Source: an uncultured bacterium (lineage in GTDB: Bacteria > Auribacterota > UBA3054 > JAPLST01). Taken from it: DNA of 64,000 nucleotides. Every line of letters starts with the position of its first letter. Positions within the stretch are counted from its first letter, which is position 1. Positions 35,447 to 41,632 of the stretch are shown piece after piece. The translations under genes were made by a program, and so were the position numbers. The notes beneath the pieces were generated by a model, which worked only from the letters and a program-made list of their open reading frames with translations, was not told where the DNA came from and ran no database searches. The DNA lies in assembly GCA_964397565.1 (NCBI GenBank), contig CAYNJC010000024.1, positions 2,535 through 66,534 of the forward strand, given 5' to 3'.

Positions 35447-36508
35447 TCAGCGACCGACCTGCGGCGCCTGGCACCGTTCAGCAAAGCCGCGCGAAGTGAA
35501 GAAGCCCAAGACGTTGGTGCCTGGCGCCGGTCGCACGATAATCAGACATTCCAGATTTGTCACGTGCTCCGCCAAGGCAATGGCATCGGTTGCCGGCATA
35601 GTGAACAATGCCGTGGACCATGCATCAGCGCTGGTACAGTCGGGCGCCCAGGTGGTGACGCTGATCGTCTCGGTTTGCAGCGGCGTGCCGCTGCGCAGAT
35701 CGATGATGTGCATGACGCTGTTGCTGCCACGCTGGTAGAAATTTCGATAGCTGCCCGAAGTGGAAACCGCGCCGCGCTGCATGGCAATAATGCGATCACG
35801 CAAGTAGGCGCCATCCATGGCGTGCGCATCGGGCACTTGGATGCCGACATGCCACGTCTTGCTGCCGTCGGATGAAACCCGAATCTCGCCGCCACCATTG
35901 ACCAAGAAGTTGGTGAAGCCATGCTGCAACAGTTGCTCTGCGGCCCGATCAACCGCAACGCCCGCCGCCATCGAGCTCAAGTCAACCTCCACGCCGGCAA
36001 CCACGGTACTCACGGCCTGCTGTTCTGGCAGACGCACAAGCTTGTCCATGCCGCTGCGCGCGCGGGCCGCGGCAAGCTCGGTTGCATCAGGCACGCGATT
36101 AGTCTTGCCAGGGCCAAAGCCCCAGGCGCGAATCAACGGGCCGGCACAGACATCATAGCTGCCGCTGGTGTAGCGCCACAATTCCTGCGCGAAACGCAAG
36201 CAGTCCATGGTTTGGGTTGTGACGGGCACCAGCGTGCCAAGCCGGGCGGCGCGGATGCGTGCCACATCATTACTTGGCAAAAACCAACTCAACTGCTGCT
36301 CGACGTTGTCAATTGCGGCGAACGCGGCCTGCATGGCCCGCTGCACATCTACCGCCGCGCGCGGCATGGCCATCACCTGAATCTCGACGACCGTGGCCAT
36401 GGCAAAGCGCTGCTCGACGAAACGCTGCGGCCGCGAACAGCCGCATAACACGCTTGCGCTCGCGACGCACAATAAAACAGAGATCTGTCTGGTAACGCTA
36501 TGGTGCAT
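35447..36508 (-). CDS. apbE: FAD:protein FMN transferase lipoprotein
   Basis: Lipobox-like LCGC, AMAT, GGEI, STSGSY, HIID and ADAWSTA. Start set at the MHHSV ATG. Confidence 0.9.
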   Translation of the reverse strand: MHHSVTRQISVLLCVASASVLCGCSRPQRFVEQRFAMATVVEIQVMAMPRAAVDVQRAMQAAFAAIDNVEQQLSWFLPSNDVARIRAARLGTLVPVTTQTMDCLRFAQELWRYTSGSYDVCAGPLIRAWGFGPGKTNRVPDATELAAARARSGMDKLVRLPEQQAVSTVVAGVEVDLSSMAAGVAVDRAAEQLLQHGFTNFLVNGGGEIRVSSDGSKTWHVGIQVPDAHAMDGAYLRDRIIAMQRGAVSTSGSYRNFYQRGSNSVMHIIDLRSGTPLQTETISVTTWAPDCTSADAWSTALFTMPATDAIALAEHVTNLECLIIVRPAPGTNVLGFFTSRGFAERCQAPQVGR

Positions 36509-36881
36509 TGAGTCCTTGTGGTAATCAGACTCACATTGTACACAATTCTCGACGGAAGAACATCCAGACATGAACGCGATTGCTCTCTGCAAGGGGGGAG
36601 CCACTTCAGGTGGTGACGCTGCGCGAGCCTGCGCCTTCCCCATGCAGGCGCGGAACGGCGTTCCGCGTGCAGCAGCACCTTCCGTCACGAAGTGCAACAC
36701 GAAGCAAGCAACACCCGTTCCGGCCCTTAGCGTGCCCCCTGCTCTGCCATCGACCACGACGCTGCCCGCCCGCTGCATCTGCTTACATCTGCGTGCATAT
36801 ATGGTAGAATATACTTAGCGAAGCGTTCGCACGTGATGCGGACGTCACCATTCACCCCTACGCGACCCGTAAGGAAGACCT

Positions 36882-37370
36882 ATGAAAACTCATATCATGT
36901 TGCTGCTGGTACTTGCCACCATAATCATAGCCATTTCGCATCGCGCCAGCGGCGCCACATTGCTGTGGACCAACACGCTGCCCGTGAATGCCACTTTGAC
37001 CGATCTGATGCCGGACGGCAAGGGCGGCGTGGTCATCTGCTATTCGCTTGTGACGTCCGCCTATATCCGCTATCTCGACAAGAACGGCGTCAAGCTCTGG
37101 GAGTCAATATTCTCTAGCGCCAGCGAGGCCTATGCCGACTACATCTCCAAAAAGCAGGTCATTGTGGTCGTATTCCAGTCCGGTCAGTTCGCGGCGTGGC
37201 AGTTCGAGCTCAAGACCGGCAATTCGCAGCCCATCGCGAGCGCCGCTGGCTCGGACTTCACCTTTGGTCCGGCGGTCCCCACGGCTAACAAGGACGCCAA
37301 AGGCTTTTTCCTGTTCCAACGTGTCACCGCCACCAACGCGCGCGTGATCCAGCGTTACTCGTACAAGTAA
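36882..37370 (+). CDS. Hypothetical exported protein
   Basis: AAGGAAG RBS, signal peptide and beta-strand-rich body; codon usage matches the host. Confidence 0.75.
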   Translation: MKTHIMLLLVLATIIIAISHRASGATLLWTNTLPVNATLTDLMPDGKGGVVICYSLVTSAYIRYLDKNGVKLWESIFSSASEAYADYISKKQVIVVVFQSGQFAAWQFELKTGNSQPIASAAGSDFTFGPAVPTANKDAKGFFLFQRVTATNARVIQRYSYK

Positions 37371-37379
37371 TCGGCTGTA

Positions 37380-37900
37380 GCAAGGTAGGGGAGCATTGCA
37401 CTTGCTGGCCCAGCCGTTGCTTCAGTTCTGTGGGAGGGTCGCCGGCCCGGCGACCACCAATGTATCCGCCGATGCCGCAATGTAGGAGCGGCTGCCATGC
37501 CGCGAAGCTGCCGCCCCTGCCGCAGATGAAGGATTGCCTCTCTGAGTTGCCGCCACTGCAATGCGCGCCGGCGACGTCTGCGCCGTACCGCCCACGGCGG
37601 TAGGGTTGGGGGATGTTGCTGGCGACCAGCGCTGGAGCTGGCTTGGCCAGTCCCGCCATCGGCGGGATTGACAGTCAATGCATGCCCCTATTCTGGGCCG
37701 GCGAATCCGCCGGGCTGCCGCAGCAGCCACGCCGCCACGCAAGCGCCGCGCCGCAATCTGCTCCAGAGTGGGAGCGACCTCAGTGTCGCGATTCTTGCTT
37801 GTTGTGACCGTCGTATCGTCACAGTTCTGCGACGTGCGAGCCGCCGTGCTGGCTTGGCGAGTCCCGCCAGCGGCGTGGACCGCGAATCTGTTGCACCTCT
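37380..37900. repeat. Cluster of diverse REP-like palindromes
   Basis: GTGGGAG-GGTCGCCGG-C-CCGGCGACC, GTAGGAGCGGC..GCCGC, GTGGGAGCGAC..GTCGC; CTGGCTTGGC.AGTCCCGCCA occurs twice. Confidence 0.6.
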
Positions 37901-38102
37901 GCGAAGGGAACGCCGATCTCCAGATCGGCTGAAGGTAGGTGCGATCGCCCGATCGCACCTTCTGCTGGAGCGCGCCCTGCACGCAACCTCCGGCATCTCT
38001 GCGGCACGATAAACGTGGCGGAACTTCGATTCTGCCAAAAGAGCGTTCGCGTCCTTAAGTCGACCTGCATGTGCTATCGGCGGGATCAACGGTCAATGCA
38101 TG
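37900..38102. repeat. Direct repeat unit A (conserved 70 bp + variable middle + conserved 102 bp)
   Basis: 37900-37969 matches 38229-38298; 38001-38102 matches 38368-38469. Confidence 0.9.
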
Positions 38103-38164
38103 CTGCTGCTCTGGCCTCTCCATGCCATTCTGCCGCAAAGAAGATTAAGTGTCAATTGTTCACG

Positions 38165-38220
38165 CCTGACCCCAGTCCGCCCTGACCCCAGTCCGCCCCC
38201 GCCTGACCCCAGTCCGCCCC
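38165..38220. repeat. Three tandem CCTGACCCCAGTCCGC repeats
   Basis: Read directly from the sequence. Confidence 0.85.
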
Positions 38221-38228
38221 TGTTGCTT

Positions 38229-38479
38229 TGCGAAGGGAACGCCGATCCCCGGATCGGCTGAAGGTAGGTGCGATCGCCCGATCGCACCTTCTGCTGGAAG
38301 TCGCGCACATGGACCCGCCGACATATAAGTGGCACGCGCGCGCCGCGTTCCCCTCGGCGCTGACGTAGCGGCGCGGTAAACGTGGCGGAACGTCGATTCT
38401 GACCAAAGAGCGTTCGCGTCCTTAAGTCGACGTGCATGTGCTATCGGCGGGATCAACTATCAATGCATGACCCTACTCC
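38229..38479. repeat. Direct repeat unit B, ending in the left arm of a 27-bp inverted repeat
   Basis: Matches unit A; ends TCAACTATCAATGCATGACCCTACTCC (38453-38479). Confidence 0.9.
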
Positions 38480-38552
38480 GACCCCCAGTAAATAGGCCGA
38501 AAGAGCGCCTTAAGTTAGTGCCATTCATGCATGAACCTGCTCGGCCGGAAAA

Positions 38553-39263
38553 TTACGCGGGAACAATCATACGGATATACATAGTTAGAAGAAATGGACT
38601 AGCAAAGTACACGTAATGTAGAAGTGAAGAAATCCGATTCAGCATTTTGTGGCGGCGCCTAGAACACCACGAATACGTAAAGAGAGAGCAGATCATTGTC
38701 ACAGAATAGAAGAGAAAAAACAAGCAGAAAAATGTGAAGGAATCATGTTGGAATGAAACAGCAATGTACCAAACACACACAACTGGGCTCAGATACACGA
38801 TGGTCAAACAGAACACTATCCAGTCAAGTGGCCCACTCCGTGCTATAGGGCTTATGCTACTAATGAGCAAATTGTCCTTGCTTAATGAGCGTTCTGTCAT
38901 AAGAAAACGATGCACCAAAACGTAGCACGCCATACCAATTGGAAATCCGGGAACAATCCAAAGGAGAATATCACTTACTAGACCGCCAAGGCTAGTGCTC
39001 CCGTGTATATAAGCGTGTTCCCTAGCCCAAATCAATATTACAAAGTAACTTATCATACATGCCAAGAAGCCAGATATGCCACAATTCACCATGCTCAAAC
39101 GCGATGCGATTGTAATGAATATATAGGGCACACAAGCCATTACTGACAGGAGAATACAAAACGCCATGTTATGTGGGTCTCGCTCATAGGTTAAAAGCAC
39201 ATAGAAGAACCATATAGCGAGCCAACATATTACTGCAAACACATACTCTATAATCGTCTTCAT
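38553..39263 (-). CDS. AT-rich hypothetical polytopic membrane protein (horizontally acquired cargo)
   Basis: 236 aa with about 7 hydrophobic helices; GAGGA RBS; base composition far more AT-rich than the flanks. Confidence 0.75.
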   Translation of the reverse strand: MKTIIEYVFAVICWLAIWFFYVLLTYERDPHNMAFCILLSVMACVPYIFITIASRLSMVNCGISGFLACMISYFVILIWAREHAYIHGSTSLGGLVSDILLWIVPGFPIGMACYVLVHRFLMTERSLSKDNLLISSISPIARSGPLDWIVFCLTIVYLSPVVCVWYIAVSFQHDSFTFFCLFFLFYSVTMICSLFTYSWCSRRRHKMLNRISSLLHYVYFASPFLLTMYIRMIVPA

Positions 39264-39283
39264 TTTATAAATTCCTCAGGAGC

Positions 39284-39474
39284 GGATTAGGGTCATGCAA
39301 TGACAGTTGACAGATGTGCAAGCGTTTGCAGATGCCGGCGCAGACGCGCATGGGTGCGCTGTGCTGCTGGCGTTCGCGTTGTGCAAATAGAATTCACGCG
39401 TGCCAGGATTGCCGCGTTTGCTCACGCGGTACCGCATAGCGGGCGCGGAATGTTAATGGTCATTGCATGGCACT
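39284..39474. mobile_element. About 190-bp element with imperfect terminal inverted repeats; its left end is the right arm of the IR around the AT-rich gene
   Basis: AGGGTCATGCAATGACAGTTGACA versus TGTTAATGGTCATTGCATGGCACT (19/24 complementary). Confidence 0.55.
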
Positions 39475-39489
39475 CCATTTGAGGGCTAC

Positions 39490-39620
39490 GGTCGCTGAGG
39501 CCAGCGCCCCTCCCGAAGCAAAGGCCGCTGAGGCCAGCGCCCCTCCCGCAGCAAAGGTCGCTGAGGCCAGCGCCCCTCCCGCAGCAAAGGTCGCTGAGGC
39601 CAGCGACCCTCCCGAAGCAA
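39490..39620. repeat. 4 x 33-bp tandem repeat of a REP-like hairpin
   Basis: Unit GGTCGCTGAGGCCAGCG(C/A)CCCTCCCG(A/C)AGCAAA with hairpin GGTCGCTG-AGGC-CAGCGACC. Confidence 0.92.
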
Positions 39621-39723
39621 CTGGCTCGGAAATTGTCAATGGTACATTGTAAATCGCAAATCAGCATTTGCCTAGCATGGCAGATTGGGTGCGATTCGTC
39701 AAGCCGGGGCTGGCCAGATATGA

Positions 39724-39750
39724 CAAAGGCCGGCGTACGCCGGCCTTTGT
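39724..39750. terminator. Perfect palindrome downstream of the PEP-CTERM gene (probable terminator)
   Basis: CAAAGGCCGGCGT-ACGCCGGCCTTTG. Confidence 0.55.
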
Positions 39751-39775
39751 TGGAGCAGCAGCAGTCGCTACGAAA

Positions 39776-41632
39776 TCACTTGCGGCGCAGCAAACCCAAG
39801 CCGGCCAGCAATGCGAGCAGCATGGCGGGTTCCGGCACCGGCGCGCCCACTTCAATGTACTGATTGCCGGGCACCAAGCTGTAATTCACTTGCGGCGCAG
39901 GGCCATAGCCATTGACATCGCCGTTGATGCCGGGCAACGATTGATTGACAATATTGCTCTGATTCCAATCGAAGAGAATGGCTTGAATGCGGACGGTCGC
40001 ACCGACGATCAGGTTGGAATAAACGAGCGTGTCCAAGTCGAGGTAGCAGTCGAAGCCGGTATTGGCTTCCGGCGGCGTGGCGGCGGTGTTATTGTCGTTG
40101 AACGCGACCACATCGGCAGCGGCGCCATTGACAATCCGCTGGAACGGATTGAAGATGCTGGTCCACTCGGTCTTGGTGCCCCAATACCATTCCTGGTTTT
40201 CGTTGATGTGATAGACATTCACCCAGCAATCGCCGGGGTTGTTGATCGAGAGCAGCACGGCCTTGTCGGGCGTGAAGTCGGTATCGAAGGTCAGCCCGGC
40301 CAGATTCTGCAGCTTGGCGGGTGAACCAGCGGTGATCAGCGGCATGACATTCGAGCCGACCGCATAGTCGGTGTCAATAAATACGCCCAGGGTGCGATCG
40401 CTGGTGCCGGTGGTCATGTTGCCGCACACACCGATGTACAAGCGGCTACCATCGGGATAGGCCATGATGCGCTCGAGTTGCGCGCCGTCGCCCGGCACGG
40501 CCGCGCGGCCCCATTGGCTGGCGGGCGTGTCCTGGACCACATTGGTGTCCGCGCCGGCGAACGCATTGGTAATGTCCAGACCGTTGATGTCCGTGGCAGG
40601 ATACACCTTGACGGTGCCGACAGCGGAGGTCAGGACTTGTCCGCCGGCATCGCTGCCCACCAAGGTGACCGGATACGCGCCGGGCACCAGGTAATTGTAG
40701 TCAAAGGCCGTTACATTGGTGGTGAAGCCATCGCCCATGTTCCATTCGACAGTGTACGGCGGGGTGCCGCCGCTGACCGTAGCGTTGCAGGTCACCGGCC
40801 CGCTTTGCGCAAACAGGGTGTACTTGCTGACCGAGCCGGCGACTTGGATGTTCGTATCAATGCCGGGAATGATGATGGTCATGAATTGATTGCCGGGAAT
40901 GAGGGACGCGTCATGTTGAACGGACGGGCTGCTGATCCAGTAATTGGTGTCGCCGCCGGTGTTCGCCAAGGTCTGATTGTTGGCCCACGTGCCGTCATTG
41001 CCGGTCAGCACGACCATGACATTGACGGTCGGACTGACATTGGCGAGATCGGCATAGGGAATGGCAATTTCAATACCCTCGCTGGCAGTATTGGTCTGCT
41101 CGAGTGCAAGCGCCACCGGCATGAACGCGCCGAGGATGAGGTTGCCATTGGTCGTCACACTACTGGCGTTGGCAATATCGCCCAGGCCGCCCAAGTAGGT
41201 GCGATTATCGGCGACGATATTTTCGAGCGCCGGCCACGCGGAACTGCGGCCACCGGCGACCCGCACCGCAATCAGGCGGTCGGGCGTGAAGTCCGTGTCA
41301 AAAGTCAGGCCGGCCATGCCGGCGGAGATGGCATCGGGCATGGTCAGCCCGCTGGGCATCACATTCGAGCCAGTGCCCGGATTGCCGTCAATGATGAAAC
41401 CGACGGCGTTGCCATCGGCGATGCTGGGAATGCCGACCAAGAGGTGCGTGGCGTTGGTGTCGAGGTAGCAGGCCAAAATGGAATTGTTCTGGCCCCAGGA
41501 GGATTCGACATCCTGGTACGTGACCCAGGGTGCGTTGGCGAAATCGCCGGTGATGTTCTGGCCGTCAATCGTGATGGCCAAGGTGATGAGCGGCAGGTAG
41601 AGACAGAATAGCAGGGTGAGCAACATTTTCAT
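39776..41632 (-). CDS. PEP-CTERM surface protein with two homologous domains flanking a PKD domain
   Basis: Signal peptide; internal repeat GSNVMP..AGLTFDTDFTPD..NQ.L..PGNQ; PKD motif WNMGDG..Y..PGAY; VPEP + TM + RRK. Confidence 0.88.
   Translation of the reverse strand: MKMLLTLLFCLYLPLITLAITIDGQNITGDFANAPWVTYQDVESSWGQNNSILACYLDTNATHLLVGIPSIADGNAVGFIIDGNPGTGSNVMPSGLTMPDAISAGMAGLTFDTDFTPDRLIAVRVAGGRSSAWPALENIVADNRTYLGGLGDIANASSVTTNGNLILGAFMPVALALEQTNTASEGIEIAIPYADLANVSPTVNVMVVLTGNDGTWANNQTLANTGGDTNYWISSPSVQHDASLIPGNQFMTIIIPGIDTNIQVAGSVSKYTLFAQSGPVTCNATVSGGTPPYTVEWNMGDGFTTNVTAFDYNYLVPGAYPVTLVGSDAGGQVLTSAVGTVKVYPATDINGLDITNAFAGADTNVVQDTPASQWGRAAVPGDGAQLERIMAYPDGSRLYIGVCGNMTTGTSDRTLGVFIDTDYAVGSNVMPLITAGSPAKLQNLAGLTFDTDFTPDKAVLLSINNPGDCWVNVYHINENQEWYWGTKTEWTSIFNPFQRIVNGAAADVVAFNDNNTAATPPEANTGFDCYLDLDTLVYSNLIVGATVRIQAILFDWNQSNIVNQSLPGINGDVNGYGPAPQVNYSLVPGNQYIEVGAPVPEPAMLLALLAGLGLLRRK

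Follow-up and report, generated by a model that had tools for sequence, protein, structure and literature searches.

The window analysed here is a 64,000-nt stretch of the genome of an uncultured bacterium (G000:C24:2535-66534), in which a single AT-rich gene, gene A, lies between copies of a short repeated site, F. From its sequence and its position at both ends of a transposase gene, F is identified as the terminal inverted repeat of a TIRtron, and the site belongs to the known TIRYT/TIRtron class rather than to an unprecedented system. We give an even chance to the further reading that TIRtron ends bracket a foreign passenger gene here, and that a transposase supplied in trans may use the distal repeat and carry or trap the adjoining DNA. 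TIRtrons are treated by Di Nocera et al. 2013 (PMC3733652), and Quentin et al. 2018 (PMC6006769) place TIRYT in TnpA_REP subclass 2.1, which has a C-terminal helix-turn-helix (HTH) of the Bac_DnaA_C, HTH_23 or HTH_28 type. As far as the consulted sections of these two papers go, a TIRYT is a RAYT-like protein, often with a DnaA_C-type HTH, and a TIRtron is a TIRYT gene between long terminal inverted repeats; these repeats have the motif GGGGWSAS in common, can extend over the ends of the gene, and in some cases make up dispersed families of moderate abundance.

The consensus of F is TTGTCAACTGTCAATGCATGACCCTACTCTGG. Its TTGTCAAC end is called the head and its CTCTGG end, on the outer side, the tail. 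Four matches to the left-arm pattern proposed in an initial annotation of the window were found at three or fewer mismatches, where 0.06 are expected and none of 100 shuffles reaches four. The same annotation expected the motif beyond this locus, and it is indeed dispersed: with a position weight matrix (PWM), 22 copies were found in G000 at a score of at least 30 and 29 at a score of at least 14, and none in 1.6 Mb of shuffled genome. The 21-nt core of F, allowing one mismatch, occurs 20 times in G000 and five times in G001, the single congener, with no hit for the backwards control, and it is absent from all 39 other relatives searched. Meanwhile, a scan for exact F matches in one genome per species, from which G000 was excluded, returned only a G001 contig. 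F is therefore a multicopy site confined to one genus.

Most F copies are solo. The sequences on the head side fall into a few families, namely a hairpin of the repetitive extragenic palindromic (REP) type (eight loci), a hairpin-bearing module (three loci), the reverse complement of a gene start reading MARPLRIEAPGMWYHV.NRGN, and a conserved CGGCATCTGCA-N11 that is the 3' end of the transposase gene. The REP+F fusion at 37665 has the same junction on contigs C1, C6, C19, C20 and C89; similar hybrids of the 'TIR + stem-loop' kind have been reported in Pseudomonas. The REP-like hairpin itself (GCTGGCTTGGCCAGTCCCGCCATCGGCGGGAT, 37633-37668) has about 45 copies genome-wide, eight of them fused to F at this junction. 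No significant fold is predicted for F (-2.1 kcal/mol, z -0.66, a 4-bp stem only), and an Rfam scan of 36500-40500 gave nothing but a chance microRNA match (E 0.77). F thus differs from a REP, which is an imperfect palindrome forming a stem-loop with a GTAG or CGTC tag; GTAG adjoins GGGTCA in only about one third of the copies, as counted by eye on the PWM scan. A sigma-54 promoter, a dif/Xer site and an attC core were also considered for F and dropped by eye, because the spacing or the invariant bases misfit the consensuses.

The initial annotation had tied the ends to a RAYT-like HUH tyrosine transposase acting in trans, and a Y1_Tnp gene flanked by the same site was found in G001. On contig C116 of that genome, an inverted F stands 28 nt ahead of the start codon of a 334-aa open reading frame (ORF), and a forward F runs over the last six codons and the stop of the ORF (..TTG TCA ACA GTC AAT GCA TGA). 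With Y1_Tnp the 334-aa protein scores 43 bits (cut-off 23), and it keeps the HFH (HUH) and RYIHLNP motifs. It scores 47.9 bits with NCBIfam REP_Tyr_transpos, under the cut-off of 80, and 19.8 bits with Bac_DnaA_C, under the cut-off of 31.5; the paralogue on C17 reaches 41.5 bits with the latter. The cognate TIRYT gene of F is intact only in the congener; the window holds a remnant of it, described below. The claim that no integrase or transposase is present in the window stands for intact genes, the 48 window ORFs scanned giving no match to a recombinase family, and falls in so far as the remnant is there. A 279-bp direct repeat (90% identical; 1217-1489 and 2687-2965 of G001:C116, locus L013) flanks the intact TIRtron; it was rejected as a target duplication, being too diverged and too long.

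The class assignment is further supported by homologous loci in the phylum. The outer parts of the repeats carry GGGGTCA. The reverse complement of F reads ..GTAGGGTCATGCATTGACAGTTGACAA, so that the motif is GGGTCATG, or GGGGTCAT in many copies, agreeing with GGGGWSAS at seven of eight positions; the paralogous units on C17 and C12 read GGGGTCAG, an exact agreement. Homologues of the transposase are present in 29 of 79 genomes of the phylum. At 22 of 30 homologous loci, inverted repeats of 20-41 bp were found, one arm about 15-120 nt ahead of the ATG and the other on or close to the stop codon, and 21 of these 22 have GGGGTCA-type outer ends. G000 itself carries three intact paralogous TIRtrons with repeats of their own (C17, C12 and C5:70.4 kb). 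The GGGGTCA stretch on the outer side often occurs as a tandem duplication, as at 38163-38220 in the window and in other TIRtrons. In the consulted sections of PMC3733652 and PMC6006769, the described elements share with ours the RAYT-like Y1 HUH protein, the C-terminal DnaA-like HTH, the roughly 30-bp inverted repeats over the gene ends, the GGGGWSAS-like motif, and repeats that are also dispersed and moderately abundant, solo, paired or clustered. They differ in that here pairs with facing outer ends enclose whole foreign genes, the motif of F departs from GGGGWSAS at one of the eight positions, and some repeats are fused to REP hairpins.

Other HUH systems are less similar. REPINs and RAYTs, in the consulted part of Bertels & Rainey 2011 (PMC3116915), likewise combine a single-copy HUH transposase with inverted short repeats that are dispersed, lineage-restricted and mobilised in trans; however, F is not a palindrome and forms no hairpin, and the spacer here is an 800-bp gene, not tens of bases. 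IS200/IS605 was rejected as well: inverted repeats are present and F lacks a hairpin, and the protein has 334 aa plus an HTH, against about 150 aa for the small TnpA.

The repeat upstream of the transposase gene apparently supplies the -35 box of a predicted promoter for a leaderless transposase mRNA. F-type units read TTGACA-N17-TATACT-N6-ATG, with two TTGACA boxes in the reverse complement of F, and in seven of 21 other TIRtrons of the phylum TAnnnT stands, by eye, six bases before the ATG, a leaderless-type promoter layout. In many TIRYT genes (loci L055-L081) a sigma-70 promoter close to the consensus stops six bases short of the ATG, suggesting leaderless mRNAs. Such features could also mean that F is chiefly regulatory, a promoter or operator for the DnaA-like HTH, and that the transposase has become a domesticated regulator of adjacent genes. 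The tandem heptamer TGTCAAC/TGTCAAT within F would suit an operator, and on C5 the F before gene A reads TTGTCA-N18-CAATCT-N7-ATG. However, a sigma-70 consensus scan calls no promoter in the F upstream of gene A in the window, F adjoins gene fragments (one IS1182-like, the other the truncated C-terminus of a transposase), it marks indels as mobile DNA does, and the intact transposase retains its HUH and YIHLNP motifs. We consider a chiefly regulatory F very improbable.

In the window, gene A is flanked by the features listed in Table 1. The inverted repeat proposed at 38453-38479 and 39284-39310 was recovered as pair I1, with arms of 39 nt (38453-38491 and 39272-39310) that are 79% complementary and 780 nt apart; the originally proposed 27-nt cores enclose 804 bp. 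The recurrence of the left arm was likewise recovered, as three direct copies of 42 nt (family D3, at 37655, 38073 and 38440; 79-81% identical) and as pair I3 (39289-39312 with 39451-39474, 79%). The degenerate form suggested at 38150-38172 turned out to be an end-repeat of a related but different family, GTGTCAATTGTTCACGCCTGACCCC. The left arm does not serve as the bracket of gene A in the way first described: although the repeat is real, it belongs to a neighbouring REP+F module, and the distal repeat of the gene is a degenerate one at about 38520-38546, separated from that module by 38 nt.

Table 1. Features of the F-bearing interval, in window coordinates.
Feature	Position	Strand	Evidence
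F copy, (a)-type; head fused to REP hairpin GTCCCGCCATCGGCGGGAT	37665..37696	+	PWM 41.8; D3 family
F copy, (a)-type, with degenerate tail; ends first copy of 367-bp repeat	38083..38114	+	PWM 37.0; D2/D3
Related-family end-repeat GTGTCAATTGTTCACGCCTGACCCC, then three tandem tail units CGCCTGACCCCAGTCCGCCC	38149..38220	+	PWM 16.6; D5; tandem repeats
F copy, (a)-type, the initially proposed left arm; tail toward 3' end of gene A	38450..38481	+	PWM 49.5; I1 arm
Degenerate distal end-repeat/tail repeat of gene-A unit	38520..38546	+	Aligns with well-kept distal F and tail repeat on C5
Gene A, 236-aa multi-pass membrane protein	38553..39263	-	ORF
F copy, 3' end-repeat (TIR_R) of decayed transposase unit, 18 nt upstream of gene A start	39282..39313	-	PWM 43.2
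Cognate TIRYT gene remnant, N- and C-terminal pieces, residues ~29-307 deleted	39296..39437	-	blastn, tblastn
Degenerate 5' end-repeat (TIR_L)	39450..39481	+	I3 pair 79%; 21/32 positions match F by eye
Four tandem 33-bp units, each with hairpin CGCTG-AGGC-CAGCG	39490..39620	.	Tandem Repeats Finder (TRF): period 33, 4.0 copies, 94% matches; D1
Species-specific 3.2-kb filling of the apbE/PEP-CTERM spacer	36512..39715	.	No G001 counterpart

The counterpart of the right-hand F (39282-39313) in the intact G001 element holds the last six codons and the stop of the transposase gene, and the remnant next to it matches the G001 element by blastn (80% over 86 nt, E 9.6e-15) and residues 308-334 of the transposase by tblastn (67%). 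A 53-aa ORF at 39276-39437 reads ..RYRVSKRGNPGTREFY.., where the intact protein has MWYHVLNRGNDRGTVFF. Taken together, 39282-39481 is a 200-bp internally deleted mini-TIRtron.

Gene A lies immediately outside this mini-TIRtron, in the sole low-GC stretch of at least 1 kb in the 64 kb (GC 0.41-0.45, against 0.58-0.68 in the flanks). As first noted, the enclosed AT-rich segment carries one gene with its own ribosome-binding site: GAGGA stands 9 nt before the ATG of the 236-aa ORF, inside the 18 nt between F and the start. The GC content of the gene is 0.42 and that at third codon positions (GC3) 0.46, compared with GC3 of 0.71-0.78 in the neighbours and 0.70-0.72 in TIRYT genes. Judged by this composition, gene A is foreign passenger DNA. 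Its protein has about six to seven hydrophobic segments. Neither gene A nor gene B, introduced below, matches a family in Pfam, NCBIfam, PADLOC or PHROGs. A word-indexed search of 5.8 billion proteins found two relatives of gene A, at 96% and 52% identity, and a profile search of 1.84 billion representatives returned P0001 only; no relative was found in a scan of genome contigs of one genome per species, and a metagenome scan gave only a strain copy of the C5 locus. Since the 52% relative (P0002) retains the hydrophobic pattern, gene A is a real gene.

A second gene-A locus and a third locus with a different gene repeat the same order. Window positions 38532-39339 are 94.8% identical to C5:5070-5864, the homology beginning at 38532 and the likeness stopping at the head of the distal repeat. 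On C5, gene A also lies downstream of a decayed transposase gene, of which residues 1-37 and 295-334 are left, and a well-preserved inverted F bounds it on the far side. Contig C92 opens with the final 14 transposase codons, after which come F, 87 nt, an unrelated AT-rich membrane ORF of 250 aa (gene B) and an inverted F. Gene B has a GC content of 0.44 and a GC3 of 0.46, its end runs into the inverted F, and it matched nothing but itself in the protein search. The block of TIRtron, gene and distal repeat thus occurs twice in G000 with gene A and a third time with the unrelated gene B. C92 is a patchwork of mobile-element debris; at 1969-2550 it also bears, by eye, a toxin-antitoxin pair of ribbon-helix-helix and PIN-like type beside a truncated TIRYT start and an IS1182-like fragment (DDE_Tnp_1_6 match).

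The association of F with foreign or variable genes, which had been predicted, is seen in the whole set of copies. All three tail-to-tail F pairs in G000 enclose an AT-rich gene. When low GC was defined as a GC content of at most 0.47 over the 300 nt beyond F, seven of 22 copies had low GC on the tail side, compared with 1.75% of genome windows (binomial 7e-8), and none of 19 on the head side. At C1:92048, the F tail faces an AT-rich 134-aa ORF beside an RHS fragment, and on G001:C31 the tail looks towards an RHS-repeat gene, at its AT-rich 3' tip. At the site orthologous to C6:19094, F has the same orientation in both species, and G001 has an additional 1.65 kb on the tail side, containing a 513-aa ORF (GC 0.53) that replaces the last ~28 codons of the neighbour; the head side of the G001 site carries the same IS1182-like fragment as C92. 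On C48, synteny with G001 breaks at F; the solo copies on C20 and C9 have no usable orthologue in G001. Outside the genus, a different TIRtron in another family of the phylum (G069:C98 ~800-1470, locus L073) has an extra inverted repeat 630 bp upstream, and between the facing tails lies a ParE-like toxin-antitoxin pair, made up of the toxin (49.4 bits) and a small ORF as its partner; this repeat family has 14 copies in its genome, and the case is the one of its kind among 22 loci viewed with 1.5-kb flanks. At both of these RHS loci, G001:C31 (locus L017, 1-1329) and C1:92.2-93.4 kb, the AT-rich 3' tip of an RHS-repeat gene is followed by a facing F tail, and F end-repeats may be linked to the exchange of polymorphic-toxin tips.

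These arrangements hint that the elements are able to carry passenger genes. In the mechanism that we favor, TIRYT would act at the tails of F; supplied in trans, it would be able to use a distal repeat in place of its normal end, and the DNA adjoining that normal end would be carried along or trapped, much as in passenger-bearing insertion sequence (IS) derivatives or in read-through of the IS91/ISCR kind. If the tails are broken and rejoined repeatedly, the build-up of variable, low-GC DNA there would be explained. Transposase-driven cargo capture is something that we infer from structure and statistics. A broader form of the proposal, in which TIRYTs are gene-capturing transposases that cut and join at the outer repeat ends, so that single foreign genes become caught between two facing ends and are moved round the chromosome, distinct from integrons, ISCR and DDE-type cassettes, seems unlikely to us.

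It might also be that F and the AT-rich genes have no functional link. TIRtron ends and small repeats could pile up in dispensable, horizontally acquired or intergenic DNA that tolerates insertions, and the AT-rich genes would have come in by other, unrelated ways and been flanked later and independently. The region 37400-38480 is in fact a mosaic of at least five dispersed small-repeat families with tens of copies each, including a 367-bp duplication that ends in F; the left arm belongs to a separate REP+F module found at eight loci, and F copies, besides being mostly solo, generally lie at synteny or indel breakpoints. However, both ends of two unrelated genes stop within 5-87 nt of facing tails, and each of these genes comes immediately downstream of what is left of a transposase 3' end; independent accumulation therefore needs several coincident insertions. 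In addition, the polarity is strict, low GC being confined to the tail side, and no tail-to-tail pair lacks cargo. We regard independent accumulation as rather unlikely.

Integron-like behaviour, as initially suggested, would make F a recombination site for the capture, excision and exchange of single foreign genes. As in integrons, a short site that recurs marks off single and often foreign genes: the same slot is occupied by genes unrelated to each other (A, B and the 513-aa ORF at the shared F in G001), the cargo is one gene with minimal flanks and foreign composition (GC3 0.46), and the site is limited to one genus with many copies. However, the sites are inverted, and site-specific recombination between them would therefore invert the gene, not excise it. 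There are no arrays, each locus having one cargo; F lacks an attC-like fold, and there is no attI; only three cargo-bearing pairs exist among about 22 copies, most of which are solo; no integrase, IntI included, was found among the 48 window ORFs, IntI not having been searched genome-wide; and circular or empty forms were not seen in the data, which are contigs only. The integron-like part of the initial annotation is thus not upheld, and a true cassette system appears quite improbable.

Several observations weigh against TIRYT-driven capture. The repeats around the cargo are opposite in polarity to those around the transposase, with their tails facing the gene, and because of this reversal the cargo lies outside the canonical element; the reversed polarity speaks more for a composite or read-through model than for cassettes moved by site-specific recombination. 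Moreover, the near-identity of the two gene-A copies is the result of gene conversion and not of recent transposition, because the divergence is uneven (about 12 differences in the first ~100 nt, roughly 88% identity, and two in the remaining ~640 nt) and because the gene-A copy on a strain-level metagenome contig that matches C5 at 99.65% identity is more diverged. No intact F-cognate transposase is assembled in G000 (89.7% complete), where the gene is represented only by 13 codons at one end of contig C67 and by remnants. No target-site duplication was recognised at the C5 and C24 borders, and the comparison with G001 revealed no empty site for the cassette. The seven low-GC tails represent only three to four independent loci, which brings P to about 0.005 by hand arithmetic, and 15 of the 22 tails adjoin ordinary-GC DNA. 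A further repeat within 1.5 kb downstream was found at none of 22 other TIRtrons. Finally, no excision or inversion junction was present in the contigs of four lake-water runs (Logan), where the repeat zone consists of short unitigs and bears neither way. In these runs, a recurrent joint 38478>38532 was rejected as a rearrangement, being the C5 paralogue, and a single opposite-strands joint (37455/39316), with a 31-nt side in dispersed repeats, was counted as nothing.

The closest parallels to capture by TIRYT come from two kinds of elements. Mobile insertion cassettes (MICs) such as MIC231, and tIS elements, lack a transposase and consist of IS-type end-repeats bracketing one passenger gene, with the transposase acting in trans; in a MIC, the repeats are oriented towards the cargo just as those of the parent IS are towards its transposase. 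In contrast, the polarity is reversed here, with the tails inward, the enzyme is HUH and not DDE, and the C5 and C24 borders show no target duplication. In IS91 and ISCR, an HUH enzyme could co-mobilise DNA next to one end by means of a more distant end, and the cargo lies directly downstream of the transposase gene. However, these enzymes belong to another HUH family (Y2, or IS91-type Y1) and their elements have no terminal inverted repeats, and no evidence of a rolling-circle product was obtained here.

To our knowledge, TIRtrons have been named and never studied functionally. If capture by TIRYT is true, the loci would represent a Y1-HUH-based passenger or cassette system. A causal link between F and its cargo would give a large and widespread HUH group its first biological role and would reveal a new route for single-gene acquisition; if the link is not causal, the locus would be a further member of a known repeat/transposase class in a repeat-rich spacer. 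With an intact enzyme, a defined 32-bp end, deletion derivatives and three facing-end loci, the genus offers a compact natural test case. In the consulted sections of the TIRYT/TIRtron and RAYT/REPIN literature, supplements aside, we found no description of facing repeats that bracket single foreign genes.

The interval between apbE and the PEP-CTERM gene, whose comparison across relatives had been proposed, holds a 162-aa ORF, the REP/MITE mosaic (MITE, a miniature transposable element with inverted repeats), gene A and the mini-TIRtron. On G001:C386, the apbE start codon is about 70 bp from the terminator of the PEP-CTERM gene. The interval is therefore empty in the congener, but G001 is another species (84-86% identity) and the comparison shows a variable spacer, not a clean empty cassette site. 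The apbE ORF at 35447-36778 (443 aa) is probably over-extended, with G001 homology and a lipoprotein-type signal, MHHSVTRQISVLLCVASASVLCGCS, placing the start at 36511. The 162-aa ORF (36882-37370) looks secreted, has normal GC content and no family; it is not in the G001 interval, and DNA 79% alike occurs at G001:C421.

Within the mosaic, a 73-nt double hairpin (..GCCGATCTCCAGATCGGC..GGTGCGATCGCCCGATCGCACC..) occurs at 37897-37969 and 38226-38298 with 96% identity. It has more than 30 related copies in the genome and a MITE- or REP-like look. The repeat region around the related-family end-repeat (Table 1) is 93% identical to C89:2770-2937. The tandem 33-bp units, whose hairpins have 5-bp stems, have the mini-TIRtron on one side and the PEP-CTERM gene's terminator on the other.

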